Notes: a model not told the origin generated them from the sequence alone. Counted from the first letter of the stretch, positions 29,896-48,433 are shown. The stretch is DNA of 64,000 nt from a virus (IMGVR_UViG_3300017746_000001:1-64000); one strand, 5' to 3'. A program made the numbers and translations.

Positions 29896-32800
29896 TCACG
29901 CCTTTGATTTGCTAATCTGTTCTGGAGACAATTGGTAATTCTTGAATTTAGCCTTGTATTCCGGTATTTGTTTGTTCAGAGCTTCATTGATTGACTTTGT
30001 TCTTTCACGCAAAGGTGCGTTTCCTTCGGTCTTGTCTAAGAATGCCCCCTCGGCTTCCACGAATATGTCCTCAATCTCGGATTCAATTTCAGTTATGTTT
30101 CTAGCAACTTCCTCACTATCTATACGATCTGTATTATTGAAGTGGAACCAATCTATTCTATCACCCATTACCGTGAAGTGGTCTTGTATTCCCAAAACCG
30201 TGAATAGGCCATGATATACTTTGAAATCATCAGGGCTTGTTTGAGAAGGCTCCCATGCCCTCGGGTGCGTATGGAAGAATGCTGTTGCCCCTTCTAGTAT
30301 GTAGCCAGTCACCATTGCCTCGTTTACTGTTTTTTTCCCTTTTCTAAAATGTAGTTTCCCGTCTTTTATCCAGCCAGATGCTTCTCCGAAGTCCTGTACC
30401 TTTTCTGCTAGTTGCATGAATAGTTTCTCTGATCCAATCGGCCCTCTCAGTTTTTCCGTCTTGAACTTCTGGCTCTCTTCGGATTTAGTCATCGTTTTAC
30501 CAAAGTCCTCTAGATAGTAAATCGCCTCTTTATCCATTCCAGGGTTTGTCAGATATTCCTTTACAGAGTAAGGGTTCTTTTTCTTGGTCTTATCCTTTTG
30601 CGCCTGAATTGCTTGCTTCTTTTCTTTACTGGTTTGAGGATGGGTTCTTCCTGAAAGAGATTTGATTAGTTTTTTACTTAGAACGCTTTGAACTTGTTTT
30701 ACCTTGTTCTTACTTTTTTGAGGCTGCTCCTGTTTCTTAAGTTCATTTTGTGGTGGAGAAGATGTGGGCTTTTGTGTATTTTGTGGTGGAGAAGATGTGG
30801 GCTTTTGCTTGGCTAGCCAGTCGTCAAACTCTTGCATACCCTCGCCTTGTTTTAATTTATTGAATATATCTTGAGGTATGTTCCCTTCTATCTTTGCCTT
30901 ATTTTTTTTGTTAAAGGCTTCCTTAAGTTCCTTTGGAAGAGGGGGCCGATGATTAGGATTGTTTTTGGGTTTTTTCTTCATCACTCCTCCAACTGATTTC
31001 AAATCCTCTATGATTTGCTCTTGTTCTTTCTCAGTCATCGTATGAACCTTGTATATGTATGCCACACTTTGTCTCAAGTGAATAGAAGTTCCTTCTCCGT
31101 AAGGAGTGTGCATCGTGAACCACATGTTGTCGAAGTTCTCCGACTTCCAAGAATAATTCTTCTTTTCTAGACCGATGAATGCGTCTAATGTGTCTTCGAA
31201 TTTTATTGGAACTCGAAGCGAGTATGAATGGATAGATGTTCCTTCTGGGGGATTTGTCTTAATTCTGAATGCCTTACTTACTGCTTCTGCTAACATAATA
31301 TAGTAGTCATGTATCGATAATTTTTGATTTACAAGTATTGCAAGTGCTTTATTGCCTGCAGACGATTGGAATTGTAGTCTCTTCCCCAATGCTGTGCTTC
31401 CTTTCAGATGCTCAGTTGCTACTTGTAAGCCCGTTGAATCAGATATGAAGAGAGCGATTTGGTCCATCAGTAGTAATGATGAGGCAGAACTGCTTGGTGC
31501 AACTACAGTTATGTCGAATTCTCCCTCTGATTGCATCAACTCTAGATATGTTGCACCGGAAGACATTGCTGCATTCTCTATAGTAGGGATTCCTGATGCT
31601 CGTAGTTCCCTACTTATTTGGTTCCCAATGACTTTTGTTTTACCTCCTGCATTAATTTGTATTTGTTGAGGTGGATTCACCTTCCAAGATTCGCCCAGTA
31701 GTGGATCTCCACCGAAGATAGACTCTCCCTCATCGGACTTCCTGGTTTGAATAGCCTGTTGCTGTAGCTTAGGACCACCCGTTCTTGGGTTTAGCCCACT
31801 TGGAATTCTAGTTCCCTTCTTTACTACATAGTTGTACTTCTTCTTATTGGCAATCCTGAAATCTCCTTCTATGTGCTTCTTGGCTATCTCTTCAAAGGTT
31901 TTCATGTCATTTTTCGCGGCGGTTTCGCTTGTGTAGCCTACTGTTGCTACGAACCAGGTGTCCTCACTTGGAGCATAGAATACCTTTCGCCCTGTTGCTG
32001 GATTCTCAATTTCTATTGCTTGACCAGACATTGATTGTGTTAGGGGATTGGCCTTGGGTTGTTTGTAGTCTGATTCCCAAGGGAACGGAACTGGTTCTCC
32101 CGCTAACCGCCTTGTATATTCTCTTTTTCCACCTTCGGAACCAAAGAATTCTCGCTCTCGGGTTTCATGGATATACTTGTGGCTGATTGATTGAGGGTTG
32201 TCGCAAGTACAATATCCAGCAGGAGGAGGGATTTTGGCTCCTTTGGTTCTAGGTTCTCCATCCCATGTGGATTCGTAAAATAGGCCGCCGCAAGTACAGC
32301 GTTCTATGCGTTTCCCGTTTTCATCTAAGAATACGGGGTTGTCTTGTACTGTTTGTTTCTCTAATTTTGCGTGGAGTTTTTTGATTCGAGGATGCCAAGG
32401 GATTCTTTCTCCTTTCTCGGCTCTTGCTTTCTTTCTTGCTTGTTTCCGTAATACTTCTTTTCCAGATTCGGATTTCAACAGGGCTTGGATTACTTTTCTG
32501 GGCAAGCATAATCGAGGTTTGCCCGATTTTGTTTGTGTGCCTTCTGCTCCGCATTTTTCTGAATAATCAATTTCACCTTTGTTGTTTACCTTTACAGATC
32601 TCCAGTCTTGACTTATCCAACTGAATGACTGATACCCTGGTGCCATAGGATTTGATTTGATTCCACTTCTCTCTTGCCACTCATACGACACATCATCCTC
32701 GTCTATTGGGCCTCCTGCAGCCCATGTGAAGCAGGTTCTTGCTGAATGGCACTTGAAGTGGTGCATCCAACAGTAGCCCAAGTAGCCGTCCTCATCCTCT

Positions 32801-35800
32801 ATGTCCTGGGAGACTGGCCCAGGCATACAGTCCAACATTCTTGGAGAAATGTCGAAAGCAACGCAGTTCGAACACTTTGACTTCTTGGCTGTAGCTACAT
32901 CTGTGTTCCAATGCTCTGCAGCATCTTCGTAGTATTTCTCGTCTGATAGGTTGAGTGGCCCGTATCTGATGTAGTCGGTCTTGATTGCACTATTCCTGTT
33001 CTTCGTGTTCAGTTCTAGATCTTGCGTAGCAGGAGGACAATCCATCGGAGGATTTGTCTTTGTCGGCCATTCAGATTTCGGCCTTCCAGAGCCGTAATCT
33101 TCGTCCCAACGGCCACCCCATGGGTCAAACTCTTCTTCGATGTATGCAACCTTAATCATTTCAGGAGAAATTGTGTCTGGACCCTTTGTTTCATCGTAGC
33201 CTTTGGTCCTGACAACATAGGATTCAGGAGGGTCTTTCATGTAAAAGGGCGTATCAGGGAGTGCGAAGATGTCTAATTCGCTTGCGTCAATTTCAAGCAC
33301 TACTGGCTTTTCATTATCTCCATCTTCAAAGTGATACAGCATCCTCGCTGCGCCTCTTGCATAGTCAAGAGCCCCACTTTTTGTTTTGGTCACAAATAAG
33401 CCGTGGGCTTTAGCAGAGCCGTCCTTTTTCCCCTCTTTCATGTATTTCTTTGCAAATCGCATTGATGTGCCGTGATAAAATGGGCCACTAGGTCTTTCTG
33501 AACCTTCAAGTTTGACGAAATTCGGAGGATTCCTATCTGCGGGGATTGACCCAGATAGACTTGTCTTTACTTTTAGTTCTCCAGTTAATGAGAACATAGC
33601 AAGATAGTGGTCGAAACTTTTCTTGAGAGATGGTTTATTCCATAAAATCCATTTCGATAAAGCACCTGCAGTAGTGAAATCTTCCCAATCTTCTCTTTTA
33701 GAATGGCGACTGTCGTATTGTTTCTTTCGCTCTGGATCATTATGTATTGTATAGTCCGAATAGGTCTTAGCACCAAAGTGAGTTGTCTTCTTTCTCCCGT
33801 CAGAGAATGAGAATACTGCTCGTAGCTTCTTATCCTTCTTCGGAGAACCGTCAATCACCACATGGACTCGGTTTAGTTCGTCTAGCTTATTCTTTAGCCA
33901 CCTGTATGTCTTGGGGGCTTTCTGTTTGAGTTTTGCTCGACCTTCACCTATTCCTGGAATGTAATATATGCTTTGATATTGCTTACTTGCTTCCTTGATT
34001 TTGTTTAGATCGTTTGACATCTTGCGTATGTTGCTTTCGTGTTCTTTGTCTGAATAGTAGGAGTCTGCTGTCGTCTTGGGCTTCTTTTTTGTTCTAAGCC
34101 CGATTGCATTCGGCTCATCTCGTATTTTCGCTTGACCCCCTTTTCCTTCTCTAAGGTCGTTGTCGCCAAATACGAAAAGAGTATTCTTGTTTTTCCTAAC
34201 ATACTCTGGTGTGATTTTCTTAGGAGGATTCATCTTGTATTCATCAACTTTTAATCCATAAGAACCATCAAGTCCTCTTTCAGTCAAGCGCATTGCGAGG
34301 AACTTACCTGCGTATGTTTCCCATACGAAGGGCGGTGCGTTGAGTGCAGAGGTAGCCATTCCCTCTGCGACATATGCTGGATATTCCAATTGTTCAAACG
34401 CTTGACGGTCCCCTTTAGCATATCGGTCTATTTGTTGAGGGCTGTATTCGAGTATTGTGGCTTCGTGCATAGCCTCATGTGCAATCGTTGAGACTGGTAT
34501 GTGATAGCCCCACCATTCGAGGAACCTTTTTTTATCTTCTTCTTGCATGTCAAATTGCTTTGCTAATCTGCGCCCAAGATGCATGATTGATACAAGGTCG
34601 ATGTTGCTTTCAAAGCCCTTTACGGGGATGATTTTCACATTATACACTTTACCGTCTTTGTAATTGACTCTTATAGCGACATGCCCGCCTCCTATTTCTT
34701 GAACACCGTCCTTCAATGAGATAACGCCCGTAGGGTTTGATTTTGTGGTTGGAACATACCTCATGTGATAATTAATGAATCCATTGTAGGATTTTTGCGC
34801 CCATCCGTCTTTTGCTACTGTTCTTTTTGCTACTGGCGCTCTGGTCACTTCTTCACCGCATGATTCACAAGTGTAGGTTTTCTTGTCTAATTTTTCTCTT
34901 TTTCCTGTACCGGATTGAATCCATGATGGATCTATTGAATCCCATTTTGCCACTAACTGTGCTTTTGGTTTCTTACACCCTTCATGTGTAGCGTACCAAT
35001 ACCATTCACCAGGTACAGACATTGTAGGAGGGTTTGTTATAGCCATGTTTGAGATTACCCTAGAGTGAATCTTAGATGCAGTCTGCTTTAGTTTGCCGTA
35101 TTTGTTTCTGATAATATAATCGAAGTTGTGTTTTTTGTAGTTTTTCTCCATCAAATTTCCTGATTTGATTCTTTGTTCAACAATCTTCTCTGGTTCTTTT
35201 CTTGACCTTATGATTTTTCTCCATTCATCTATCGGTCTATCGAGGGGAAGATATATCGAGAAGATTGGTGCTATTTCTGCTTTTCTCATTCTTTCTAGTG
35301 CCTTGAATGACTGATCTATAATCACGATAGGCGTTGCTGTCAAGTCAGATATTCTTCTCGCATATTTCTTCCCCCCGTAGTTCTCGAAGACGAGGTCTGT
35401 TCCGTTAGGAGCAGTAAATTCCCCCGATTCCCTCATCTTCTCGAACTTTGCATCAGTCACGGTCTTTATGTCAATGCCCTGCTTCTCATTGACCCTCTTT
35501 CCCCTTGTGGTGTATGTTCGGGCGAGGGAGGCCTTTTTTCCAAATAACTTCTTGAGTTCCTTCTGAACGCTGCTTTTCCCCATGCCAGAAGGCCCAGAGA
35601 TGGAAATAATCAACTGAGGCGGGAGTAGGTCTGCTAAAGGTGTGGGTGATACCTTTCGTGGTTGGACGGTGACAGGTGGGTTCCAAACTACCTCTCCTTT
35701 GGGGCTTAGAATCTCCAAGTGTGGAATCTTCTTCCCAAGTAGGGCCATTGCGTAGTTCCGGTGATTGCCTTCTCTGCCGATGCTTGGGTACATCAATCCG

Positions 35801-36351
35801 TTTTTCTCGATTGAATTCAACAATTCTGGTGACACCCATTTTCGTGCTTGCTTTCCAATTCTGACTTGATTCTGGTCTTTTTTGGATATTCCGAATGCTT
35901 CTTGTAATGCCAAGAATTTCTCATCAGTCATTTTGGCGACTTTGTAAGCCATTCTTAGGTCATCTGCCGATACAAGTTCTTGTATTCCAATGTGCCTCAA
36001 TTCATTAGGATTTATCAAGACTGCACGATATAGGGCGTCTTCTGCCTTTCCAGGTAATCCATAACCGCCATCTTCGATGCTTCTAAAGTGATGAATTGCG
36101 TCCTCTTTCAGTGATGTTCCGACTGGCCCATATTCCTTTTCCATTGCGATAATCATGCGCCCTGTTTCATCTCCAGGCAGTTCATCAAATTTGTAGATTC
36201 GTCCTGGTTCGAAGTCGAAGTGGGTTGTGTATGGTATTTCTTGTGGGTTGAAGGAAATCGTAGGAGATATTAGATCCGCATACAGCAGGTGCGGGTGCTT
36301 TATTGCAGCATTACCTGGAAAGAACGGTGAGCCTTCTCTCGGGTCTTTCAA
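29896..36351 (-). CDS. 2151-aa multi-domain polyprotein with NP-delimited modules
   Basis: EGNHR (ParB/Srx-like), ISGPSGMGKS+TTR (guanylate-kinase-like), CESC Zn ribbon, HEAMH, FVFGDN..GKGGQA, HFGA..YSDYT..H, YHGTS..GLFVT (ART-like), CPPATQD Cys/His module and HTHP..SPDD (JAB). Confidence 0.8.
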   Translation of the reverse strand: MKDPREGSPFFPGNAAIKHPHLLYADLISPTISFNPQEIPYTTHFDFEPGRIYKFDELPGDETGRMIIAMEKEYGPVGTSLKEDAIHHFRSIEDGGYGLPGKAEDALYRAVLINPNELRHIGIQELVSADDLRMAYKVAKMTDEKFLALQEAFGISKKDQNQVRIGKQARKWVSPELLNSIEKNGLMYPSIGREGNHRNYAMALLGKKIPHLEILSPKGEVVWNPPVTVQPRKVSPTPLADLLPPQLIISISGPSGMGKSSVQKELKKLFGKKASLARTYTTRGKRVNEKQGIDIKTVTDAKFEKMRESGEFTAPNGTDLVFENYGGKKYARRISDLTATPIVIIDQSFKALERMRKAEIAPIFSIYLPLDRPIDEWRKIIRSRKEPEKIVEQRIKSGNLMEKNYKKHNFDYIIRNKYGKLKQTASKIHSRVISNMAITNPPTMSVPGEWYWYATHEGCKKPKAQLVAKWDSIDPSWIQSGTGKREKLDKKTYTCESCGEEVTRAPVAKRTVAKDGWAQKSYNGFINYHMRYVPTTKSNPTGVISLKDGVQEIGGGHVAIRVNYKDGKVYNVKIIPVKGFESNIDLVSIMHLGRRLAKQFDMQEEDKKRFLEWWGYHIPVSTIAHEAMHEATILEYSPQQIDRYAKGDRQAFEQLEYPAYVAEGMATSALNAPPFVWETYAGKFLAMRLTERGLDGSYGLKVDEYKMNPPKKITPEYVRKNKNTLFVFGDNDLREGKGGQAKIRDEPNAIGLRTKKKPKTTADSYYSDKEHESNIRKMSNDLNKIKEASKQYQSIYYIPGIGEGRAKLKQKAPKTYRWLKNKLDELNRVHVVIDGSPKKDKKLRAVFSFSDGRKKTTHFGAKTYSDYTIHNDPERKKQYDSRHSKREDWEDFTTAGALSKWILWNKPSLKKSFDHYLAMFSLTGELKVKTSLSGSIPADRNPPNFVKLEGSERPSGPFYHGTSMRFAKKYMKEGKKDGSAKAHGLFVTKTKSGALDYARGAARMLYHFEDGDNEKPVVLEIDASELDIFALPDTPFYMKDPPESYVVRTKGYDETKGPDTISPEMIKVAYIEEEFDPWGGRWDEDYGSGRPKSEWPTKTNPPMDCPPATQDLELNTKNRNSAIKTDYIRYGPLNLSDEKYYEDAAEHWNTDVATAKKSKCSNCVAFDISPRMLDCMPGPVSQDIEDEDGYLGYCWMHHFKCHSARTCFTWAAGGPIDEDDVSYEWQERSGIKSNPMAPGYQSFSWISQDWRSVKVNNKGEIDYSEKCGAEGTQTKSGKPRLCLPRKVIQALLKSESGKEVLRKQARKKARAEKGERIPWHPRIKKLHAKLEKQTVQDNPVFLDENGKRIERCTCGGLFYESTWDGEPRTKGAKIPPPAGYCTCDNPQSISHKYIHETREREFFGSEGGKREYTRRLAGEPVPFPWESDYKQPKANPLTQSMSGQAIEIENPATGRKVFYAPSEDTWFVATVGYTSETAAKNDMKTFEEIAKKHIEGDFRIANKKKYNYVVKKGTRIPSGLNPRTGGPKLQQQAIQTRKSDEGESIFGGDPLLGESWKVNPPQQIQINAGGKTKVIGNQISRELRASGIPTIENAAMSSGATYLELMQSEGEFDITVVAPSSSASSLLLMDQIALFISDSTGLQVATEHLKGSTALGKRLQFQSSAGNKALAILVNQKLSIHDYYIMLAEAVSKAFRIKTNPPEGTSIHSYSLRVPIKFEDTLDAFIGLEKKNYSWKSENFDNMWFTMHTPYGEGTSIHLRQSVAYIYKVHTMTEKEQEQIIEDLKSVGGVMKKKPKNNPNHRPPLPKELKEAFNKKNKAKIEGNIPQDIFNKLKQGEGMQEFDDWLAKQKPTSSPPQNTQKPTSSPPQNELKKQEQPQKSKNKVKQVQSVLSKKLIKSLSGRTHPQTSKEKKQAIQAQKDKTKKKNPYSVKEYLTNPGMDKEAIYYLEDFGKTMTKSEESQKFKTEKLRGPIGSEKLFMQLAEKVQDFGEASGWIKDGKLHFRKGKKTVNEAMVTGYILEGATAFFHTHPRAWEPSQTSPDDFKVYHGLFTVLGIQDHFTVMGDRIDWFHFNNTDRIDSEEVARNITEIESEIEDIFVEAEGAFLDKTEGNAPLRERTKSINEALNKQIPEYKAKFKNYQLSPEQISKSKA
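30745..30807. repeat. 33-bp tandem duplication (QKPTSSPPQN twice)
   Basis: ATTTTGTGGTGGAGAAGATGTGGGCTTTTG occurs twice. Confidence 0.9.
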
Positions 36352-39305
36352 TCCAAAGACCCCCTCTGAGCTAGTAATGCCTCCTTCTCATCCTCCTCTT
36401 CGACAAATGCCCTGAATTTTGGCCTTGCTGCTCTCTCTATGTCCTTTGAGTCAGGTAATTTAGTTCGAGGGTGCGCTTTGAGATACCAAGGAACAGGTTG
36501 TAGCGAATCTAATCTAATCTCATTCACCGTTCTTCTCAGCCCGTATTTCTTTGGAATTCTTATCGTCTGAACCGCCCAGTTCTCAACAGTATCTCTTAGT
36601 TTCCCTGCTATTACTAATCCACCTTCATACCCGTCGTATCTTTCGTTCCATCCGATTATGTTCTTTACGAAATCCCTGTCCTTTTTCTTATCTAGGTTGA
36701 ATGTTCGGAGAATGGCCTTTCCAGACTTGTCTCCTGTGTGTTTGAACTTCCAAGGCGGAATCTGTCTGTGACTGGAGAAATTCGCTGTAGGAGGATTCAG
36801 GCTTGCTGCTATCAAAGCCTCAACGCTTGGTTCGAACTCATTAGGAATGAAGGGCTCAGGGCCGTTTATCTTGAACTGGTCAAGAGAAATGTCTGATAGG
36901 AACACTTTGCCTTTGTCTGTTTCGTATTCGGACTTAGCAGTAAGTGTTTCACCTTCGTCTACATTGAAGTCAAGCCCTTCAATGACGGATCTTATTCCAA
37001 CCACTCTAGGGTTGACTAAGTCAGGTAGTTGCTTTACATCAACGATTGAAATTCTTGAAAGCCCTCTTATTTTTTCTGGAACACCCCTAGGAGGAGCAGT
37101 TTGGCCTACAGGCATAACTGGAGATACTTGCATTTCTCTCATCCGGCCTGTTTCTGGGTCTTTGTACTTCATAGGAGGCGTTTCATCCCTCATCCTATCC
37201 TCTGCTGCTGACTTTGCTCTGTCCAAATTATCAACTAATTGAGTTGTTCGTGAATATATTGGTTGCATTTTCAGATTCATATTCTCGAATTCCACTTCAA
37301 GGATCAAATCTGACTCTAATGGATCCACAAATACCATGTTGCCGTCTTGATGTGTTGCGTATTCTGATAAATGAGATAGTAGGGCTCTCCTGTCTTGAAC
37401 ACTTATTCCTCTGAATGCCCCTACTTTACCTATTGAATTGAATAATGTTTTTTTCTTCTTTTTTGTTCTTATTTTTTCACCCGTATTTGCATCGATTACA
37501 GGCTTTTGTATTTCTCCTTCGCTTACTACTCCTAGGAGGACTGTTCCGATTTCTCCATTCTCGAACCTCTTTCCTTTAGCTTCGAACCCTAGAACTGTTG
37601 CTGTGGCTTTCATTCTTTTCTTGTAGTAAGATGTTTTACCTGCAACAATTACCCCTAGTTCGATTGCATTTCCATTGATTACTTCATCTTCGAATACAGA
37701 TAGTGCCTCTCCCGAACTGTGCTTTACAGGCATTATGTTCTCTCCGATTAAATGTGCAAGTTCCTCTAGGTCTTTCTTGGCATCTTTGCTGTTTATTCTT
37801 CCTTCGATGTGTAAAGTCACATTCTCCCAGTCCGAAGATTCGAAAGACAGGAGTTTTGCAGGTAGGTTGGGGTCAATTGTCGGCTTGGATGCTAAAGTTC
37901 CAAAGATTACTTCTTCTTTGCCCTCATCCATCATAGCGTCTATTTGCGCTAGTTGTATTATGCCTGCTCGAACTGAACCGTCTTTGAAACCCGCCATAGT
38001 TGAGCTTCCAGAGTTTGCATTTACTACTACGCTTCTTCCATAAGGAACCGCGAATGTTATTTCTGGGTCGTCAGGCAATATTTCTATTTCCTCTGTTTTC
38101 TCTCTCCTATGTTTTCTCTCGGCCTCGCCCAGTTTGTCATTGTTTACTTCCATTATTCGTTCTTCTTTGGGGATTTTTGATTCTTTAATCAATCCTGCCC
38201 CTCGTAAGAATGAGAACACTATCGGAGCATGCACACCTATATTGTAGGCCGCCACTAAAGGATGCCCGTCATATGCGGGATCGTATTCATCATTATGTAT
38301 TGGCACTATAGCATAGCCCATTCCAGTCAGATTGTGTGAGAAAAATCCCTTCTTGTTGCTTGAGGTCTTACTAGGAGGCCTAGGTATGTCTAAAGATAGT
38401 GGACTTAATGAACTAGATGTTGGATAACTTGCTTCAACTTTATCGGTTTTACCAGAACCCTCTAGCACCTTTGTACCGATGCTCTCGAATCCTACATCTG
38501 CCGCTACTGCTTCTGGGCTTTCATTTAGTATGAAAAGAAGCATTTTCCTCAATCCAGCACCGCAGAGCATAGTTTGAACGCCCTTTTCGTTAAGCCTTAA
38601 CTCGAAGTCTTGGGCGATTGCGACTTCTGGCCTTCTTATGTTCCTACTTGCAGTCAATTCTATTACAGTAATCCCCTCTATATTGAACCCCGTAGTTTCT
38701 GAGGACAATGCAGACTTCAACCTACCCTTCGTTACATTGAATCCTGCCCTGTCTTTCTCTTCCAAGATTCTTTCGAGATATGATAGAACTCTCTTTCTAT
38801 ATGTGTTGTGTAATTCATTCAACCTTTCGATTCTCATTAGTGTCTTCTCATCACCTAAGCCTTCGTTGACAACAGTTAGTAGGCTTACAGGGTATTTCTG
38901 AAGCTCTGAAAGGTTCGGACCCTCCCTAGATCTGCGGCTCTCAAGCCTATGCATGACTCTAGCATTCCCTTCGAATAACTCTGCTACCACTTGAATTGGC
39001 ACACCAGGGTAGTCCTCTTCCAATATGATAACTGGCCTCCCATGACCAAACTTCTTTTTCTTAATCCCCCATGAAATAGATGCTGTAGGCTCTGCGAGTT
39101 GTGCGCCTGGGGCTAATGTATTCGCAGTTCGAGGGAGAAAGAAATCTTTAGGAGATTTGGTTAGGAAAGCCCCGTTCCTTCCGGTTGAAGTTATTATGCT
39201 AGCCTTTGCTCTCTGGGCAAACTTGTCCTCGCTGAGTTGAGAGAACCTAAAATATGGGCTGTTCTTGAGAATGTAAGTAGCCGTTTCAGGTAAGCTTGTC
39301 TGCAT
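36348..39305 (-). CDS. Large protein with a degenerate ATP-dependent DNA ligase-like C-terminal/OB region
   Basis: ATVLGF..G..GTVLLGV...IGKVG...L...L..VDP...ILEVEF resembles a ligase OB domain. No clear adenylation KxDG motif was seen. Confidence 0.5.
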   Translation of the reverse strand: MQTSLPETATYILKNSPYFRFSQLSEDKFAQRAKASIITSTGRNGAFLTKSPKDFFLPRTANTLAPGAQLAEPTASISWGIKKKKFGHGRPVIILEEDYPGVPIQVVAELFEGNARVMHRLESRRSREGPNLSELQKYPVSLLTVVNEGLGDEKTLMRIERLNELHNTYRKRVLSYLERILEEKDRAGFNVTKGRLKSALSSETTGFNIEGITVIELTASRNIRRPEVAIAQDFELRLNEKGVQTMLCGAGLRKMLLFILNESPEAVAADVGFESIGTKVLEGSGKTDKVEASYPTSSSLSPLSLDIPRPPSKTSSNKKGFFSHNLTGMGYAIVPIHNDEYDPAYDGHPLVAAYNIGVHAPIVFSFLRGAGLIKESKIPKEERIMEVNNDKLGEAERKHRREKTEEIEILPDDPEITFAVPYGRSVVVNANSGSSTMAGFKDGSVRAGIIQLAQIDAMMDEGKEEVIFGTLASKPTIDPNLPAKLLSFESSDWENVTLHIEGRINSKDAKKDLEELAHLIGENIMPVKHSSGEALSVFEDEVINGNAIELGVIVAGKTSYYKKRMKATATVLGFEAKGKRFENGEIGTVLLGVVSEGEIQKPVIDANTGEKIRTKKKKKTLFNSIGKVGAFRGISVQDRRALLSHLSEYATHQDGNMVFVDPLESDLILEVEFENMNLKMQPIYSRTTQLVDNLDRAKSAAEDRMRDETPPMKYKDPETGRMREMQVSPVMPVGQTAPPRGVPEKIRGLSRISIVDVKQLPDLVNPRVVGIRSVIEGLDFNVDEGETLTAKSEYETDKGKVFLSDISLDQFKINGPEPFIPNEFEPSVEALIAASLNPPTANFSSHRQIPPWKFKHTGDKSGKAILRTFNLDKKKDRDFVKNIIGWNERYDGYEGGLVIAGKLRDTVENWAVQTIRIPKKYGLRRTVNEIRLDSLQPVPWYLKAHPRTKLPDSKDIERAARPKFRAFVEEEDEKEALLAQRGSLD

Positions 39306-42040: not shown

Positions 42041-42051
42041 ACCAAATCCCC

Positions 42052-42282: not shown

Positions 42283-42853
42283 CTGCTCTTTCTTCTATCT
42301 TCCAATCGCCACCAAGTATCATCATTATTCTATCATAACCAGGAGGAGGGCAAGTCACATACAACTTAGGTGGATCTCCACCCTCTTCTCCAAAATGATG
42401 TATGTAGTCGTCTTGCTCGCCATTCTTGTTAGTCTTACCAGATGTGTAGCCTATGAACGGGCAATCCCCCTCTCCTAGTGCCACTAAAGGACTGTTCTCA
42501 TCAGGAAGCCAAACTGTCTTTGATACGATTTCCGTTGGTTCTGCACCGTTGAATTGCCTATACAGGTCTATTGCATCACCATCGACTTTTGTTTTCTTGG
42601 ATTTCTTTTTTCCTCCAAGATGAGGATTCAACTTGGCCTTTACCTTCTTAGTTGGTAAAATCCACTTCTTTGATATTTTGTTGGGTGCTGTGCCGTCTTT
42701 GAAATTGACATCGTGGCCCCAGGACTTGAGTCCTCTGCAAAGAGCTTCTAATCCGAGTAAGTGGTGTGTGGCGTTAGAGTTGCCATCGAATGTGACTATG
42801 AAATCACCGTTCTTCTCTTCCATAGTCACCTCCCACTTCGACTTCTTTGCCAT
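42257..42853 (-). CDS. Two-module hypothetical protein split by an LNP motif
   Basis: GAGGTGA RBS; KLNPH followed by a LYRQFNG...YIHHFGEEGG module. Confidence 0.75.
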   Translation of the reverse strand: MAKKSKWEVTMEEKNGDFIVTFDGNSNATHHLLGLEALCRGLKSWGHDVNFKDGTAPNKISKKWILPTKKVKAKLNPHLGGKKKSKKTKVDGDAIDLYRQFNGAEPTEIVSKTVWLPDENSPLVALGEGDCPFIGYTSGKTNKNGEQDDYIHHFGEEGGDPPKLYVTCPPPGYDRIMMILGGDWKIEERADGKLWLVD

Positions 42854-42857
42854 TATA

Positions 42858-45800
42858 TCACCTCATTTCGTATTTTGCACCGCAGTCGTGGCACTTGTAT
42901 ATCCTGCCATTCTTCATCAATTTCACTTCGCTACCACATGGCTTGCTTCGCTTGGTTTTCTTGTAAGTGCATTTCAATTTGGGAGATGATTCCGCCCTAC
43001 TTGTGTATTCTCCTGACTTGAATTTATCATGGCCGCACTTCTCGCACTTGTCTTTGAGGCTTTTCATCGTCTGCCTGTGTCCACATTTTTGACATTCTGC
43101 AGTTATTGGGTTGCTCTTTGGAGGTTTAGTCATCTTGATAGCGTCTGCAGTAGCGATCAGAGTCAGAGTAACTGTTTGCGAAATCATCTCGTAGTCTACT
43201 TTCAAGTTGGCAACAGCGTTGCCTCCTTTTGCTTTCGCTCTGTCAGAGAGTTCTTGTTGCATACTTGCTATAGCCATAGCCATTCTTTTTTCGGCCATTG
43301 ATGTCCTTCCACCAATAAGTCCTCGGTATATGCCTTGAACTGTCTCGCCAATATCTTTTACGAAGTTTCTTCCGATTTGGACTTCGGATGAAACCAGGCC
43401 TTTGTTAGTGAACTTAGATGATGGCGCACCTGCGTAAATAGGGAGAACATTTGCGGGGTTGCTCTTTACCTCGCCTCGAGCGAATTTATTTTGAAAACTC
43501 TTTGAGAATTTTGGTTTTGACTGAGGTATCGTATTGAATCCTTTCTTGTTGGCTTTACCTATTTCTTTTTGAGATACTACGATATACACATTCCCCTTTT
43601 GCATTATCACATATTCTTGACCGTGTTCTGCCGCCACCATATCTTGTAGTGCTTTGGCATGATTTAATCCATTTGCTTGAAGAGAGGCAGGTAAAGGAGG
43701 GTTTTTCTTAGTTGGTCCTTTACCAAAATCCACATCACCACTTGACTTTATGAAACCAATTAATTTCTCTTTATTTTCTTTGTCATATCGGTCTACATCT
43801 TTCCAAAACTCGTATAATTTAAGGGGGCTTCCGGCTACTGCTTTATATTGTTCTGCAAGTTCCATTACTTTAGTCATGTCTCCTGTTCCCATTGCGTCCT
43901 TGCCTGATAGGAGGGCTCCCGTATTTGTCTCTACGGTGCTGTCATCTTCTTCGGTGGCTTCTGCTTCCTCTTCTTTTCTATCCGCTTCTGCCTTAGAGGT
44001 CCACTGGTCGAATTCTTCGAATACTGGGCCTGAGTTTGATTGGAAGTCTATTCCGGCCTGGCCTATTTTTCCGAGTAAATCGCTAGGAAGGCCAGGGCGC
44101 TCTCCGGAGTCTCCTTCCCATGTGTCTTTCCACAATTTCTTCGCATATTCTTTGTTCTCTTTTTTAGTCTTCGCCGCATCATCGGATTTATTATGATAGG
44201 CTGCAAGCTTCCTAAAGAAGTTGATTTTTTTATCATAGTCTAGAATATCTTGTGAAAGTTCTGTGCCGTATGGCATGATGCTTGCCCTGCTCGTTACCCC
44301 TAGACCTTCGATTGCTCTCTCTGCAATACTAGGTTCTTCAACCGCAGGCTCCGTATCACCTAGAGGGTTAAGCATAGTGTAAAGCAACAGAGTCTCTGCT
44401 TCTTTCAGATCATAGTTGTATAGTGACTTCGCTCTAGCGGCAATGATGAATAATAAGTCAAGGCCGTTAATCCTTCCTTGTGGGTCTTGTGCTACTTCTG
44501 CATACTCATCTAATATTTGCATTGTTGGGATGACCCATTTCGAACTCCAACCCTTCGGTTGTTTTCTAAATCCGCCCGAGAATAGAGGCACCAAGTAAAA
44601 TCCACTCGTGCCTTTAATCGGGAACGCTAGTTGCATTTTCACTAATTCATCCATCTTTCTTTTCTTAATTTTCATATTTTTTTGGTTATCATTACCATCA
44701 ACACCTCCTACAAGGAAGAGGTCTTCGAATGATTCTCCATCGACTCTGTCATTATTCGCCCTGTCTAAACTATAATTGATATTTCTACGAATGTTTGCTG
44801 ATGTGATTTTTTCTGCAGCGCCGAAATCCCTGAATCCAATGTCAATCACGCCTTTTGTAGATTCGAATGCCCTTGAGGACGCATTGAAGATTGCCTTTGC
44901 CGCCTCATTTTCATTTTGATTAAAGGCTGCAAGTAGTCTGTTTGCAGATTTTTCCGCGTTTTGTCTAACGAACACAGGTGTTGGGGTTGAATCTTTTTTT
45001 GACGGAGAGACTTCTCCAAGGAGGAAGTCCCACCATGCATTATATTTGGGTTTCTTTGGAGGCCTTTGGTTTTGCCCTAGGTCAAATATGTAGTGTATTA
45101 CATGAGGCTCTGTCATATTGACTGCAGTAGGAGCTATACTGTTCAGGAACTTTTCATTCAAACCTTTTGACTCACTTTGAGTGCCGAGATAAGGCGATAT
45201 TTTTTGCAAATATGGCACATTGTTTAGCCTTGTACCGTGATATGCATTAATTATCCTCGCGAAATCTTTCTGTGTTCTTTCTGTCCTGTCTATGTATTTT
45301 TCATGTCCCTTCAACAAACCGTCAATAAGTGTTTCACGGCTTATTCCTGTAGTTTCTAGATAATTGTCAATCTGTTCTCCACTTACTTCTCCAGGTACTC
45401 CGATTAATCTTGCCATGTCTTCATAACTATTGTAAATTCTAGTTCTGATTTGATCTCTAAGTTGTCTTGCATTTTTAGATGAGACAACTTCGGAACTTGT
45501 AGGTTTGAATCCACGAATTTGCGCTCTTATCCTCTTGTCTGTCGAACCCCTTAGTTTGATAGGTCGAGCAGATGGTGATTTGAAACCGGAAGTAATCTCT
45601 GCCATAGTACGGAATGTCCCTGCTTCATTCATCCTTTTTGCTTGATCTATCTTAGCCATATCGGGAAATAACTTTCTAGATAATTCAGATGACTCGAATC
45701 TTTCTACGGCCTCTGTCGCTTTAGTAGCACTTTCTTCTTCGCTCTCGAAAGGATTGTTCAAAATTATTTTTTCGCTTGGTAAGATGTATATTTTGTCTTC

Positions 45801-46064
45801 GTTGATTACTGCATTCATAGCAGACATCAAATCTATTTCTGTGAGGACTGTCATATCTTTTTTCTTGTTGTATCTCCCTTTTGCTATGACAGTTTCATTA
45901 TTTTGGAATCTGTCGCTTGTCAAAGAGCCCCCATGACCCTTTCTCTTTATTTCATCTCTCTTCATGGCTAATATCGGCATGAAAGCGGCAATTTTCCTGT
46001 CTTTGATTTTATCTCTTTCTTTCCTTGAGAAATTCAGAGGAGTTATTCGCCCTTTTACATTCAT
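42858..46064 (-). CDS. 1068-aa polyprotein-like protein with YbjQ/UPF0145-like and Zn-ribbon modules
   Basis: GLVSSE..IGRNFVKDI..GGR...A...GGNAV.NLKVDYE..A.ADAI is bounded by KSNP on both sides. C-terminal CQKC/CEKC/CHDC. Confidence 0.8.
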   Translation of the reverse strand: MNVKGRITPLNFSRKERDKIKDRKIAAFMPILAMKRDEIKRKGHGGSLTSDRFQNNETVIAKGRYNKKKDMTVLTEIDLMSAMNAVINEDKIYILPSEKIILNNPFESEEESATKATEAVERFESSELSRKLFPDMAKIDQAKRMNEAGTFRTMAEITSGFKSPSARPIKLRGSTDKRIRAQIRGFKPTSSEVVSSKNARQLRDQIRTRIYNSYEDMARLIGVPGEVSGEQIDNYLETTGISRETLIDGLLKGHEKYIDRTERTQKDFARIINAYHGTRLNNVPYLQKISPYLGTQSESKGLNEKFLNSIAPTAVNMTEPHVIHYIFDLGQNQRPPKKPKYNAWWDFLLGEVSPSKKDSTPTPVFVRQNAEKSANRLLAAFNQNENEAAKAIFNASSRAFESTKGVIDIGFRDFGAAEKITSANIRRNINYSLDRANNDRVDGESFEDLFLVGGVDGNDNQKNMKIKKRKMDELVKMQLAFPIKGTSGFYLVPLFSGGFRKQPKGWSSKWVIPTMQILDEYAEVAQDPQGRINGLDLLFIIAARAKSLYNYDLKEAETLLLYTMLNPLGDTEPAVEEPSIAERAIEGLGVTSRASIMPYGTELSQDILDYDKKINFFRKLAAYHNKSDDAAKTKKENKEYAKKLWKDTWEGDSGERPGLPSDLLGKIGQAGIDFQSNSGPVFEEFDQWTSKAEADRKEEEAEATEEDDSTVETNTGALLSGKDAMGTGDMTKVMELAEQYKAVAGSPLKLYEFWKDVDRYDKENKEKLIGFIKSSGDVDFGKGPTKKNPPLPASLQANGLNHAKALQDMVAAEHGQEYVIMQKGNVYIVVSQKEIGKANKKGFNTIPQSKPKFSKSFQNKFARGEVKSNPANVLPIYAGAPSSKFTNKGLVSSEVQIGRNFVKDIGETVQGIYRGLIGGRTSMAEKRMAMAIASMQQELSDRAKAKGGNAVANLKVDYEMISQTVTLTLIATADAIKMTKPPKSNPITAECQKCGHRQTMKSLKDKCEKCGHDKFKSGEYTSRAESSPKLKCTYKKTKRSKPCGSEVKLMKNGRIYKCHDCGAKYEMR

Positions 46065-48433
46065 TTTTTAGCCCCCCATCTAAGTGCTACTGGACCCATT
46101 TTCTTGCCACCCGATAGTCTAGCATCATATACTAGGCTACCATTTAGTTGTACTTGAGAAACATACAAGTTGCTTGCGTTTTCTATTCCAGGTGAATGAC
46201 CTTCTGATTGGAATTGTTTCGCTACACCTCGGTTGTAATTTACCTTTTTTGATTTGACTAACGGATCGTATGAACCCTTTACAGTTAAGTCTTTGACGAA
46301 AGTTAGATTTCCGAAATCTCTTTCTATTCGCTTGAGGAGTTTTCTGACTTGTGCTGTTGACTTTGAGCCTTTGCTAGCTACAAGCCTACCCGATGAAAGG
46401 TCGTGCTTGGCTAAAATTCTAGGGAGAATGATTCTGTGAGGCACTAAGTTCCCGTTGTCCTTTCTCTTAGCATAGAGAATTTGCATCTTAGGATGACCTT
46501 TGTCCACTTGGTTTCCACTTTTGTCTAATGCGGCTTGCAATAGTTGTTTGGAACCGTACTTCTTACCTCGCCACCTTAGTTTGTCCGGTATTTGCCCTTT
46601 GCCATAGTTATCATACAATTGCTTCAAATCCTCTTCCTTCACTACCTTTTTTAGATACTTCATAGATGGGTGCTTTTCGGTTAGAGTTTTCACATCTATT
46701 TGACTTCTTGGCACTACATCAATTGCTATGGCCTTACCTATTGCCCCCCTAGGGTTCTTCTTCACCTTGCCCCTTCCAGTCTCGGTTTGTCTCAAATCAA
46801 TTTCTCCACCAATTTCTGTGGCGGAATCTACTTCTTCTACTAATGCGGCATCTGTGAATGCGTCGCTGTAATTCTTCGCTCTCCCTAGATCTTCGACGAA
46901 GAAATCAGTAGGCAATATATAAAATGAATCTTCTTTCGCAATTGATGTCGGCCATTTCTTACCAGGCACCTTCCTCAAAGTTACTGTTAGAGTACCTTTT
47001 GGAACTAGGAAGTCGTTTTCTATACCTACTGAAAGGTTGGCGTGTATGATGAACCGTAGAGAAATCGAATCTTGATTAGGCCATTTTGAGAATATTTTTT
47101 TTTCAGGCGTGGATTTACCAGTCAATGCCGCATGGAAAATTGGGATCCAATTTGTTGTGAGATAATTTGCACTTGGTTTGATTGCTGTCAACCCCAATGT
47201 ACCTCTAGTGTTTTTGGTTTTAGCGATTTCAATGTTATCGTTACTGCCTCCCATTGCTAAGTTGCTTTGGTTTGCTGTTTTCATCACTTCATGCATTTTT
47301 GTTGATTTCCAACCATCTCTTGTCGGAGGCATCGACATATCTAGTGATACTAGCAAGGGCTCTGGACTTCCTTTGAATGAGATTTTCGCCTTGTTACTGT
47401 TGTTGTTGTTGTTGTTGTTGTTGCCGCCACCGCCACGATTACGATTGTGACTACTAGAAGCACTACGCCGATTGGCGACACTACCAGGGAGGTATGTCAA
47501 GGAAGATGCGGTGATTACGAACATATCCTTCAATCCTGTTTGGAATGTACTCAGATCCATTCCGTATTCATCTTGTATCGCATCTAGATTTTTCCTAGCA
47601 GTTCCTATTTCTCCCTTCTCGAATGCCTCAACAGCGTTTTTCGCTAGTTCGAATGCTTGGAAAATATGAGTCCCTATACCTTTTCCACTCGATGTCACTA
47701 TGTTTTTTGAGCTTTGAGAAAGTGCGATACTGAATTTCTGTAGGTTGCCATCCATAACAAGTCTCTTTAGGGCTTGAATTGCATCTATTTCCGAATCTTC
47801 CATCGGTTCTGGTCTTGGAAATATTTGCTCGCCAATTTGAGGGTCGTCTAATGTTATCTGAGCTATTGTATATCTGTTGTAAGAATTTACAGGCAGATTA
47901 TTTAGAATTCTTATATGAAGCCCAGGTAAGTCGTGAATATCTAGACCTCTGAAAGATTCCATCTTCTTAGAGAAATCTGGACATTGCGATATTATTTCTT
48001 TGTCCCAAGAAAGGTCAGAGACTTCGTTTCCTATTCTGAGTACACTCTTTTCGTTTGCACCCGTAATCATCCAGTATAGAAAATCCCCTATTACAGCCGC
48101 TTCGAATCTGTCATATCCATCCGGCACTTGAGACAAGTAGTTTGCATGGTCTCTATCACTATTGGACCAATCCTCTGCAAACTCGAACAATGTTTCCCTA
48201 ACAATTACAGGTAATTTTTCTGTATTGCTGTAATTCTTGATTTGTTTTTGTGTCAGAGAGTTTATCATGCCATACAAGTCATCTATTACAGGATATTTCG
48301 ATACTGTTGCTAGAGTTCTTTCCCTTCCTGGTTTTTTCAGCAATTTTGTTTTACTGAATGCCTTCGGTTGTTTATCATAGAATCTTTCTGAGTCTCCTAC
48401 CGGATTCTTCTTGATGACTTTCTTCCTTGGCAT
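46061..48433 (-). CDS. 790-aa hypothetical protein with two KKNP motifs
   Basis: KKNPVG near the N-terminus and KKNPRG internally; GGGG-poly-N linker. Confidence 0.8.
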   Translation of the reverse strand: MPRKKVIKKNPVGDSERFYDKQPKAFSKTKLLKKPGRERTLATVSKYPVIDDLYGMINSLTQKQIKNYSNTEKLPVIVRETLFEFAEDWSNSDRDHANYLSQVPDGYDRFEAAVIGDFLYWMITGANEKSVLRIGNEVSDLSWDKEIISQCPDFSKKMESFRGLDIHDLPGLHIRILNNLPVNSYNRYTIAQITLDDPQIGEQIFPRPEPMEDSEIDAIQALKRLVMDGNLQKFSIALSQSSKNIVTSSGKGIGTHIFQAFELAKNAVEAFEKGEIGTARKNLDAIQDEYGMDLSTFQTGLKDMFVITASSLTYLPGSVANRRSASSSHNRNRGGGGNNNNNNNNSNKAKISFKGSPEPLLVSLDMSMPPTRDGWKSTKMHEVMKTANQSNLAMGGSNDNIEIAKTKNTRGTLGLTAIKPSANYLTTNWIPIFHAALTGKSTPEKKIFSKWPNQDSISLRFIIHANLSVGIENDFLVPKGTLTVTLRKVPGKKWPTSIAKEDSFYILPTDFFVEDLGRAKNYSDAFTDAALVEEVDSATEIGGEIDLRQTETGRGKVKKNPRGAIGKAIAIDVVPRSQIDVKTLTEKHPSMKYLKKVVKEEDLKQLYDNYGKGQIPDKLRWRGKKYGSKQLLQAALDKSGNQVDKGHPKMQILYAKRKDNGNLVPHRIILPRILAKHDLSSGRLVASKGSKSTAQVRKLLKRIERDFGNLTFVKDLTVKGSYDPLVKSKKVNYNRGVAKQFQSEGHSPGIENASNLYVSQVQLNGSLVYDARLSGGKKMGPVALRWGAKK
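47398..47423. repeat. (AAC)n microsatellite encoding poly-Asn
   Basis: About 8 GTT units on the plus strand. Confidence 0.85.

Follow-up and report, generated by a model that had tools for sequence, protein, structure and literature searches.

A modular viral polyprotein whose conserved Asn-Pro seams resemble processing sites

An uncultured 129-kb marine virus (an IMG/VR record with direct terminal repeats and a CheckV completeness of 100%) encodes, within the 64,000-nucleotide stretch of DNA analysed here (the window; IMGVR_UViG_3300017746_000001:1-64000), a 2151-aa protein whose unrelated modules are separated by a short motif centred on Asn-Pro (NP), hereafter the seam. At these NP seams, related viruses have acquired, lost, and rearranged modules. 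The conservation of the motif between unrelated domains looks like a cut-here code, and comparison of sequences suggests, with a probability of about one half, a modular polyprotein of the polyvalent type in which the seams are putative processing sites, with a JAB-like module as the foremost candidate for the protease.

Asn-Pro in the polyprotein and its relatives

The preliminary description of this DNA had counted 19 NP dipeptides in the 2151-aa ORF where chance would give about 5. The count was confirmed: 5.5 are expected from composition, none of 2000 shuffles reached 19 (Poisson p 5.6e-6), and NP has the top z-score among all 400 dipeptides of the ORF. The 14 sites it had listed individually are all present, 1-3 nt from where it had placed them. 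The longer motif [KR]xNP occurs nine times (0.87 expected; p 3.6e-7) and NPP seven times (0.35 expected; p 9e-8). The expectation that homologues keep the NP held as well, in that NP is enriched in each of 50 large relatives (z 2.9-6.6). For 50 further representatives (<50% identity), the counts were 562 NP (178.5 expected) and 239 [KR]xNP (26.6 expected); as relatives share phylogeny, such counts across them are not independent events.

Table 1. Features of the window (positions counted from its first nucleotide)
Feature	Position	Strand	Remarks
Histone-H1-like basic protein	25734..27140	-	LVNPP at aa 24; outside 29896-48433
Thermosome-type chaperonin	28242..29744	-	directly downstream of the polyprotein
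Modular polyprotein ORF, 2151 aa	29896..36351	-	TTG start codon; MKDPREG opens the homologues at this position
Polyprotein NPs 1-10, N codon starts	36247, 36010, 35680, 35032, 34735, 34228, 33529, 33052, 32650, 32338	-
Polyprotein NPs 11-19, N codon starts	32197, 32047, 32002, 31789, 31675, 31252, 30958, 30574, 30544	-
Conserved 34-aa N-terminal leader	36250..36351	-	..DPREGSPFFPG..HPHLLYADLISPTISF, then directly NP35
Module B, guanylate kinase	35029..35676	-	NP224 to NP440; Pfam match aa 251-417
Module C, small Cys-rich segment	34732..35028	-	NP440 to NP539; Pfam matches weak only
Module D	34225..34731	-	carries HEAMHE
Module E, DUF7831 + DUF5754	33526..34224	-	NP708 to NP941; DUF7831 aa 711-821, DUF5754 aa 831-883
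Module F, YHGT-containing segment	33049..33525	-	weak ART-PolyVal match (E 0.18)
Module G, Cys-rich domain	32647..33048	-	NP1100 to NP1234
Modules H, I, J, K, L and K/Q/P-rich tract M	30571..32646	-	each NP-bounded
Module N, C-terminal, JAB/MPN-like	29899..30570	-	double seam KKNP...TNP in front
1068-aa ORF	42858-46064		[KR]xNP 3 vs 0.41 expected, p about 0.006-0.008
C-terminal part of the 1068-aa ORF	43107..43703	-	KKNPP (aa 788), KSNP (aa 869), KSNP (aa 985)
790-aa ORF	46061..48433	-	KKNP at aa 10 and aa 560 (48404, 46754)

The polyprotein divides into 14 NP-bounded segments (Table 1). Guanylate kinase (GK), DUF7831, and DUF5754 are identified by Pfam and a JAB-like fold by prediction; domains added in relatives are DNA/RNA ligase, NUDIX, GNAT, glutaredoxin, and DUF5824. 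As had been proposed, the NPs lie mostly at domain borders: GK fits between two of them, DUF7831 begins 1 aa past NP708-709, and only 2 of 92 NPs fall inside Pfam matches, compared with 19.0 expected. An exception is the DUF7831/DUF5754 joint near aa 826-833, which lacks an NP, so that not all domain joints are NP-marked. Module swapping at NP among homologues, likewise anticipated, was equally evident. Within 10 aa of an NP lie 291 of 381 homology breakpoints (76%; null 20%), and within 5 aa lie 52% of 2050 HSP starts and 48.5% of 1966 HSP ends (null 7.8%); 24% of breakpoints are without an NP, and 40% of NPs are without a detectable breakpoint. The median length of a segment from NP to NP is 113 aa, and at least 80% of each partner is covered in 70.7% of the 15,922 homologous segment pairs. 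Within alignments, NP is retained in 57% of cases, at a flank identity of 36%. Three of eight loose ends of RNA-library contigs of relatives fall on NP codon pairs. Three outcomes had been named beforehand as speaking against the idea, namely NP at background frequency, NP inside domains, and NP lost in homologues; none of them was observed.

Module order is shuffled among relatives, and single modules are 97-99% identical within proteins otherwise 30-65% identical; one order, J-K-L-M-(I)-N, is retained among closer relatives. The module that follows the leader at NP35 differs from relative to relative. Module D, for which Pfam and PDB sequence searches gave no match, carries an HExxH motif and has no copy in any of 49 other relatives. 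For Module G, 77 of 81 matches elsewhere lie in stop-to-stop ORFs of at most 330 aa, the ends coinciding with NP1100 and NP1234; outside this lineage, it is found mostly in small ORFs without NP flanks, and only L038 has NP on both sides.

The seam consensus is (V/I/P/A)-(K/R)-x-N-P-(P), with positions -3, -2, 0, +1, and +2 all specific. Pro is enriched at +2, +4, and +6, and occupies +2 in only 30% of 1036 seams. The Asn codon is AAC or AAT and the Pro codon CCA, CCT, CCC, or CCG, in keeping with the codon usage of the genome, and the codons to either side differ; the variation of the seam codons places selection at the amino-acid level and, together with that of the flanking codons, means that no DNA word is conserved. 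The leader MKDPREG...TISF-NP is common to 21 of 51 proteins, and very short leaders ending in a seam are found in P0022 (MNKTNPP) and L104 (MNHEPRSNP). The single modelled seam is disordered in the predicted structure. Position specificity, short leaders, and this predicted disorder favour a putative linear recognition site over a plain linker.

The JAB/MPN-like module, neighbouring genes, and the virus

Module N is the most widely kept module of the polyprotein family. Residues E63, H100, H102, S112, and D115 (module numbering) do not vary among the 16 sequences compared and form the motif E..HxH..SxxD, with a spacer of 9 residues between HxH and S; the spacer of the canonical JAMM motif (E..HxHx7SxxD) is 7. 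The strict motif is present in 49 of 50 representatives, 48 of which have an NP at the module edge. A profile of the module retrieved no more than 82 clusters from 1.84 billion proteins; 52 of them (50 new) are at least 600 aa long, and the remaining, short ones are probably fragments. The predicted structure (pLDDT 86.9) matched PfJAMM1 best (Z 6.2, rmsd 3.8, 108 aa), followed by Rpn11 and Cap3 (both 5.9). JAMM/MPN matches ranged from Z 6.2 to 5.1, all below 8 and hence middling, and RadC (Z 5.2) was within ~1 of the proteases. Foldseek with the same model returned nothing at E <= 0.001 (best E-value 0.034). Module N matched no Pfam family at E <= 5, the JAB model included, a PDB profile search with it yielded no JAB, and PF04002 and PF14464 (RadC, Prok-JAB) gave nothing at E <= 1 across four related records. 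Motif and predicted fold, at modest Z, thus make Module N a candidate JAMM/MPN-like metalloenzyme.

The motif had also been said to recur in the neighbouring genes. All cited sites are present, but only the ORF at 42858-46064 is significantly enriched, and recurrence across all neighbours was overstated. In that ORF, the seams lie at 43701 (KKNPP) and at 43458 and 43110 (KSNP); a YbjQ-like module (Pfam aa 888-975) is located between NP869 and NP985 and is followed by a small DUF7129-like Zn-ribbon segment. Enrichment in 46061-48433 is borderline (two [KR]xNP, 0.36 expected, p 0.05), KLNPH is found at 42626 and SLNPP at 36795, and the 985-, 911-, and 198-aa ORFs show no significant NP enrichment. 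The C-terminal part of the 1068-aa ORF is the only stretch among the neighbours in which the seam is clearly present. The H1-like protein has the leader ...G(T/R)LVLV-NPP just ahead of a K/R-rich tract, and six of six homologues start ...LVLV-NPP. The order polyprotein, ORF of ~508-529 aa, H1-like ORF recurs in five related loci, where the middle ORF is known by its length alone.

The thermosome-type chaperonin makes an archaeal virus plausible, but identity to the closest named relatives among cellular organisms (Poseidoniaceae, Poseidoniales, Thermoplasmatota, Bathyarchaeia) is just 34-38%. The genome also has a serine recombinase and an Rpb1-domain-5 ORF beside this chaperonin gene. Magrovirus group D, as reportedly described by Philosof et al. 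in 2017, is defined by a family B DNA polymerase and has thermosome, resolvase, and RNAP A genes; a PF00136 search of the complete record found no DNA polymerase B. Genes for a capsid, a portal, or packaging cannot be recognised in the viral genome, and Pfam gave no S78 prohead protease.

Processing of the polyprotein and other explanations

The polyprotein consists of a conserved 34-residue leader and at least 13 independently folding modules, the last being the putative JAB/MPN-like metalloenzyme. If the seams are processing sites, a protease would recognise them in trans by their linear motif and would most likely cut at or beside the Asn-Pro bond. The modules would thereby be freed as separate proteins, and short leaders, including that of the H1-like basic protein, would be removed as well. 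The leading candidate for this activity is the JAB-like module of the polyprotein itself, on the grounds that it is kept more widely than any other module and is confined to NP-seamed proteins. Most proteases tolerate Pro at P1' poorly, which counts against cleavage between Asn and Pro, and known JAMM proteases cut after Gly-Gly tails, which counts against the JAB candidate.

The seam might instead be an uncleaved inter-domain linker or insulator, with NP(P) ending one fold and starting the next in one giant multi-enzyme chain; ribosomes might slow at the Pro-Pro step and let modules fold in turn, perhaps helped by the adjacent viral chaperonin. Such a chain would fit the position of the seams between folded units, the disorder of the single modelled seam, the enrichment of Pro at +2, +4, and +6 as in extended linkers, the thermosome-type gene next to the polyprotein, and the recurrence of the gene order. 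Two polyvalent proteins, N4 vRNAP and TraC1, are moreover reported to be delivered unprocessed (main text of Iyer, Burroughs, Anand, de Souza, Aravind 2017; PMC5512222). However, conservation of five positions over hundreds of unrelated junctions is unlike ordinary linkers, the seam also follows very short leaders without an upstream domain (P0022, L104, the H1-like protein), and most seams lack the Pro at +2; an uncut chain is rather unlikely.

Recognition of the seam might also require no protease. Self-cutting through cyclisation of Asn to a succinimide, the chemistry of asparagine peptide lyases, would agree with Asn and Pro being the two invariant residues (Asn by motif definition), but spontaneous Asn-Pro scission is slow in free peptides. 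Several self-cleaving proteins, virion proteins included, cut exactly at Asn-Pro (PMC3207474, PMC10328401); the cases described in PMC3207474, however, depend on a folded domain in which an acidic residue is placed close to the Asn. The seams of the present proteins connect modules unrelated to one another, their flanks are not conserved, the modelled one is disordered, and NPTH occurs in 0 of 1036 seams, which renders self-cutting improbable. Little probability is likewise assigned to the seam being a docking or packaging tag that lets a non-proteolytic partner (capsid interior, scaffold, chaperonin) bring the chain, or its modules, into the particle without cutting. Recurrence of a short linear motif along the chain, and its place after N-terminal leaders in at least two other proteins, would suit a tag, as would the fact that 10 of the 14 DNA runs with near-identical sequence are labelled viral metagenome, all 14 being flagged as possible sources of this DNA. 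Yet one tag per protein would be enough, which leaves its presence at every module border unexplained, and no capsid or packaging partner can be recognised. That the seam is a mere by-product of recombination, a DNA microhomology for module exchange with no role in the protein, is very improbable: homology breakpoints and loose ends of environmental contigs do coincide with NP codons, but the codons of the seam and of its flanks vary.

Comparison with known systems

Large dsDNA viruses and phages mature their particles by comparable codes, such as L/I-x-E for T4 gp21, with removable targeting leaders, and S/A/G-x-E for phiKZ gp175; other maturation proteases are adenovirus AVP, ASFV pS273R acting on pp220/pp62, and poxvirus I7L. 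Shared with these would be a short consensus at product ends, N-terminal leaders, and a basic DNA-binding protein with a leader, and the leaders of the polyprotein and the H1-like protein may resemble removable core-protein propeptides of other large viruses. The code, by contrast, is Asn-Pro, the products would be enzymes and not core shell proteins, and S78 is absent by Pfam. The 2A 'StopGo' peptides (D(V/I)ExNPGP) found in eukaryotic RNA viruses contain NP as well and separate products of one ORF by a mechanism known only for eukaryotic ribosomes. Identity with 2A was rejected, as NPGP occurs in only 2 of 1036 seams and the upstream 2A consensus is absent.

With the JAMM/MPN+ proteins (PfJAMM1, Rpn11, CSN5, AMSH, CBASS Cap3) and RadC, Module N shares the motif and, by prediction, may share the fold; unlike them, it has the longer spacer and no Pfam JAB match, and neither a ubiquitin-like partner nor a Gly-Gly tail can be seen. 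Asparagine peptide lyases and other proteins that cleave themselves between Asn and Pro, as described for FlhB/YscU (at NPTH), reovirus mu1 (Asn42-Pro43)/aquareovirus VP5, and RsgI, resemble the present case in that the scissile dipeptide would be Asn-Pro and that some members are virion proteins. The proteins so described cut once, in cis, inside dedicated folded domains, whereas the seam is repeated, linear, and placed between unrelated modules.

Closest in architecture are the polyvalent proteins of phages and conjugative elements, which undergo extensive domain shuffling and carry 2 to 15+ unrelated domains of different activities per polypeptide (Iyer et al. 2017; PMC5512222). Members of this class enter the host packaged with the DNA, and their signature domains include MPTase, ART, RadC/JAB, and DdrB-ParB. 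Like them, the 2151-aa protein is virus-encoded and unites many unrelated catalytic domains in one chain; it has a putative JAB-type module and a weak match to ART-PolyVal. Its domain set and that of its relatives (guanylate kinase, ligases, NUDIX, GNAT, glutaredoxin, DUF7831/5754/5824) and a host that may be archaeal are unlike those of the polyvalent proteins described there. The same authors regarded the RadC-type JAB of polyvalent proteins as a likely nucleic-acid enzyme, which counts against a protease role of Module N, and suggested that an embedded peptidase, the zincin-like MPTase, frees domains by autoproteolysis, where the candidate here is the JAB-like module. The main text of PMC5512222 describes no conserved junction motif and contains the word 'linker' 0 times; the 2151-aa protein has such a motif.

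The Asn-Pro seam in the polyprotein and its relatives

The preliminary description had counted 19 Asn-Pro (NP) dipeptides in the 2151-aa polyprotein; all of them were found, as was each site it named individually, with coordinates that deviate by 1-3 nt at most. Its claim that NP and K/R-x-NP exceed background also holds. From composition, 5.5 NP would be expected and none of 2000 shuffles reached 19 (Poisson p 5.6e-6), [KR]xNP occurs nine times versus 0.87 expected, and NPP seven times versus 0.35. As a guard against cherry-picking, all 400 dipeptides were ranked, and NP came first in the polyprotein and likewise in 29 pooled non-redundant relatives (474 versus 166 expected). The shuffles together with the ranking rule out a chance origin of the excess. 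Among 38 other ORFs of the window tested, a 2989-aa ORF served as internal control (NP five versus 4.3 expected).

Recurrence of the seam in neighbouring genes was only partly borne out: the 1068-aa ORF is enriched ([KR]xNP three versus 0.41 expected) and the 790-aa ORF borderline (two versus 0.36), but the 985-, 911- and 198-aa ORFs are not enriched. The YbjQ-like module ending the 1068-aa ORF has KSNP on both sides, and in two other virus lineages, where it resides in different large ORFs, it is again flanked by NP; use of the seam is therefore not confined to a single gene, but does not extend to every gene originally named. A 316-aa ORF elsewhere in the virus record, with RVNPKDNPPP near its C-terminus (NP four versus 1.1 expected), may represent another use of it.

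A length-matched search yielded 50 large proteins (1324-3518 aa; contigs up to 140 kb) with modules in common with the polyprotein, all 50 being enriched in NP (z 2.9-6.6). A profile of the C-terminal module, compared with 1.84 billion representatives, returned only 82 clusters, with 52 proteins of at least 600 aa; 50 of these are new representatives, mutually <50% identical, and contain 562 NP versus 178.5 expected and 239 [KR]xNP versus 26.6 (z of at least 3 in 43 of the 50). In all, these are ∼100 large proteins (the 50 relatives plus the 82-cluster set), and 1036 seams were counted in 79 of them. Position −3 of the seam favours V, P, A or I, position −2 is K or R in 45% and L in 13%, position −1 is free, Asn and Pro occupy positions 0 and +1, and Pro follows at +2 in 30% and is enriched at +4 and +6. 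The 2A-like NPGP (2 of the 1036 seams) and the FlhB-like NPTH (none) are ruled out. That homologues retain the dipeptide was confirmed, as NP is conserved in 57% of cases within alignments, the flanks being only 36% identical.

NP had also been described as lying at domain borders, and indeed only two of 92 NP in five proteins are inside Pfam matches, versus 19.0 expected; each of the 21 Pfam matches, or the joined domain pair to which it belongs, has an NP just outside it, usually 1-25 residues off. In an all-against-all BLAST comparison of 29 proteins, NP was no more than 5 residues from 52% of 2050 alignment starts and 48.5% of 1966 ends (null 7.8%). Of 381 breakpoints supported by at least three partners, 291 are no more than 10 residues from an NP (null 20%). 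When 79 proteins were split at NP, 1115 segments resulted (median 113 aa), and in 70.7% of 15,922 pairs of homologous segments, each of the two is aligned over at least 80% of its length. The pattern is not without exceptions: 24% of breakpoints are without NP, 40% of NPs are away from any detectable breakpoint, and the joint between DUF7831 and DUF5754 has none.

Module exchange and leaders

Swapping of modules at NP among homologues, which the preliminary description had proposed as a check, is evident from their order, which differs widely; guanylate kinase and DUF7831, for instance, precede the Cys-rich module G in the window and come after it in the related locus L038. Since some modules are 97-99% identical within proteins whose backbone is 30-65% identical, their exchange appears to be recent. 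Among RNA-library contigs of related strains, three of eight match-end points fall on NP codon pairs. At the seams, AAC and AAT both serve for Asn and any of the four codons for Pro, in keeping with the rest of the genome; because the codons vary, a DNA-level recombination word guiding the exchange is ruled out. The polyprotein is thus built as a chain of modules, which are exchanged at a linear seam that is under selection. In one relative (L104, on the same contig as L038), the polyprotein is spread over a 2811-aa and a 1113-aa ORF (stop-to-stop) overlapping by 19 nt, which may reflect a frameshift, faulty assembly or a genuine split.

The seam also follows leaders. The first 34 residues of the polyprotein, ending in ...TISF-NP(P), are 88-94% identical in 21 of 51 proteins, and the modules after them differ. 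Very short leaders precede the seam in one large relative (MNKTNPP; P0022) and in the second ORF of L104 (MNHEPRSNP). In the histone-H1-like basic protein encoded downstream, a short conserved leader ending in ...G(T/R)LVLV-NPP is followed by a K/R-rich tract in six of six homologues (the window protein and those of L092, L095, L100, L103 and L104); for the window protein, the real start is probably an internal Met (MSEGRLVLVNPP). Genome-wide, NP within the first 40 residues is not more common than expected (12 of 108 ORFs versus 9.8).

The coincidence of seam and module border is clearest for module G, which is encoded in >590 IMG/VR stretches and is a very widespread accessory gene, here embedded in the polyprotein. 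The 80 loci retained contain 81 matches, of which 77 are in stop-to-stop ORFs of at most 330 aa, with ends matching NP1100 and NP1234 of the polyprotein, and the small stand-alone ORFs are 62-81% identical to it. Among those matches, NPP is present on both sides only in polyprotein L038 (2811 aa stop-to-stop); fusions of module G in unrelated viruses have no flanking NP. Stand-alone and embedded copies alike contain no internal NP, which renders a depletion test uninformative. One GenBank phage record annotates module G as a high-potential iron-sulfur protein. GenBank phages contain single modules as small genes only, none of 101 records covering 80% of the query.

A JAB-like module and the possible meaning of the seam

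Few modules are retained as widely as module N, which is present in 40 of 49 relatives (the next ORF carries it in L104). Residues E63, H100, H102, S112 and D115 are retained in 16 sequences with identity down to 24%, giving the motif E..HxHx9SxxD, which in its strict form is present in 49 of the 50 representatives, with NP at the N-terminal edge of the module in 48 of 49. The AlphaFold2 model from a 19-row alignment reached a pLDDT of 86.9 and a pTM of 0.85, with disorder in its first 10 residues, where the seam lies; an earlier model from a 9-row alignment (pLDDT 57.6) was set aside. Foldseek gave no match at E ≤0.001, its weak list being mostly Jab1/MPN chains, and an exhaustive VIA search placed JAMM/MPN on top (PfJAMM1 with Z 6.2, rmsd 3.8 and 108 aa; Rpn11 5.9; Cap3 5.9; BRCC36 5.6; RadC 5.2; AF2198 5.1), all Z values lying under the tool's caution line of 8. 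The ESM Atlas returned sub-threshold leads only (Prok-JAB 0.88, Toxin-JAB1 0.85) and, for modules J-L, nothing. Searches of the PDB by single sequence and by profile returned nothing relevant, and IMG/VR scans found 0 loci (single protein) and 1 locus (first alignment). The fold searches lend modest support, and none of the Pfam JAB, RadC and Prok-JAB models matches; the module is therefore named JAB-like, after its motif and predicted fold, and is a candidate protease. RadC-type JAB domains of polyvalent proteins are regarded as probable nucleic-acid enzymes by Iyer et al. (PMC5512222). Complex prediction for the JAB module with Zn and a 36-aa seam peptide scored 0.02, which speaks neither for nor against binding. 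In a 140-kb relative, a neighbouring ORF of 1459 aa contains a second, different segment with HTHP (HTHPRDTFKPPMFPIISGHD), which may be a second JAB-like module. Module D, bearing HEAMHE, was rejected as the family protease: none of 49 relatives has a copy, and it has no Pfam or PDB sequence match.

We put the probability that the seam is processed in some way at about one half. As a processing site, it would be read in trans; this reading draws on the five specific positions, the location in disordered joints between unrelated folds, the co-occurrence with a dedicated metalloenzyme module found nowhere else, and the short leaders, where nothing is present that needs a linker. An uncleaved linker or folding pause, against which these leaders also speak, is possible, if on the unlikely side. 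That the JAB module is the enzyme acting at the seam is unlikely. Canonical JAMM enzymes bind a Leu-Arg-Gly-Gly tail, and a cut at N|P would place hydrophobic-(K/R)-x-N, a tail of like shape, at P4-P1. In its fullest form, in which an embedded divergent JAB/MPN+ metalloprotease would cut (hydrophobic)-(K/R)-x-Asn|Pro and equip these dsDNA viruses, which are marine, ∼130 kb in size and probably archaeal, with a genuine system of polyprotein expression, the proposal is doubtful. Dozens of accessory enzymes, which are separate small genes in other viruses, would then be made as one chain behind one leader, perhaps packaged, and released at a universal seam that would also permit recombinational module exchange without loss of function.

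The preliminary description had left the choice between a cleavage site and a packaging or docking tag; the tag we consider improbable. Self-cleavage by Asn cyclisation carries a similarly small chance and fits poorly, because in the Asn|Pro self-cleavers known so far (FlhB/YscU, mu1/VP5, RsgI; PMC3207474, PMC10328401) the cut depends on a dedicated folded domain, whereas the seam joins arbitrary modules. A mere by-product of recombination is scarcely credible, given the varied codons for both Asn and Pro.

Genomic setting, host and comparison with known systems

The complete virus record (128,784 bp; the window is its first half) has a terminal redundancy of ∼124 bp, is classed in IMG/VR as having direct terminal repeats, and has a CheckV completeness of 100%. 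The polyprotein starts with TTG, and homologues have Met at the same residue (MKDPREG...). As this start codon and the stop of the 985-aa ORF overlap by 4 nt, translational coupling within the gene array is suggested. After Pfam and PHROGs searches, most neighbouring ORFs are without a name. Pfam matches to HK97 capsid, S78 protease and A32 ATPase were found neither in the record nor in two complete relatives (127.6 and 140.3 kb). Its serine recombinase and its ORF with an Rpb1 domain-5 match are reminiscent of the MCP-lacking "magrovirus group D", as described in the accessible parts of PMC5434244, PMC10160649 and PMC11706807, but a family B DNA polymerase gave no Pfam match in the complete record.

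Near-identical DNA is present in 14 sequencing runs; 10 carry the label viral metagenome, but all 14 are flagged as possible sources of the record's DNA. Error-free short contigs of the polyprotein gene occur in four RNA libraries, which is compatible with, but does not prove, its transcription; in these Logan contigs, transcript ends, strand and level are not readable, and uncovered parts of the gene carry no meaning.

The chaperonin directly downstream of the polyprotein is of the thermosome type (332 bits to thermosome alpha versus 61 to GroEL). Viral members of its clade are 42-100% identical, followed by cellular thermosomes, the nearest being from Poseidoniaceae, Poseidoniales, Thermoplasmatota and Bathyarchaeia. 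The earlier assignment to an archaeal virus thus agrees with the chaperonin type and its archaeal nearest cellular relatives; because the latter are only 34-38% identical, an archaeal host is plausible but unproven. In L092, L095, L100, L103 and L104, the place of the chaperonin is taken by an ORF of ∼508-529 aa.

Locations of the features discussed (window coordinates unless a record or locus is named)
Feature	Location	Strand	Remarks
Array of large genes		−	790, 1068, 198, 911, 985, 2151 aa; then 500-aa chaperonin, 468-aa basic protein
Polyprotein ORF	29896-36351	−	2151 aa
Stop/start overlap, 985-aa ORF and polyprotein	36348-36351	−	
Module G	32647-33048	−	aa 1102-1235
Module N		−	aa 1928-2151
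NP codon pairs at match-end points	32336, 32653, 34732		RNA-library contigs
Chaperonin	28242-29744	−	
Histone-H1-like basic protein	25734-27140	−	
Serine recombinase ORF	G000 (complete record)		
ORF with Rpb1 domain-5 match (E 3e-19)	G000:C1:69544-72063	+	839 aa; outside window
ORF with RVNPKDNPPP	G000:C1:116130-117080	+	316 aa; outside window
Overlap of the two polyprotein ORFs	L104:7355-7373		
ORF with HTHP-containing segment	L105:5269-9645	+	1459 aa

Polyvalent proteins are already in print, as is the idea of their domains being released by an embedded peptidase, in a paper whose accessible text makes no mention of a conserved junction code (PMC5512222). Targeted literature searches, with most subscription journals outside their scope, returned no description of an Asn-Pro-seamed polyprotein. 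The seam is a family-wide, statistically overwhelming junction code in a marine, abundant and almost unannotated group of viruses. If cut, it would represent a new protease specificity, a new strategy of gene expression and module exchange, and possibly a compact, portable cleavage tag; if uncut, it would still mark domain boundaries universally and with unusual strictness, and would help to divide dark viral proteins into their domains. Polyproteins expressed with a cleavage code typify RNA viruses and a few dsDNA viruses of eukaryotes; for prokaryotic viruses, to our knowledge, the record comprises only limited processing of head proteins and a still hypothetical self-processing by polyvalent proteins.
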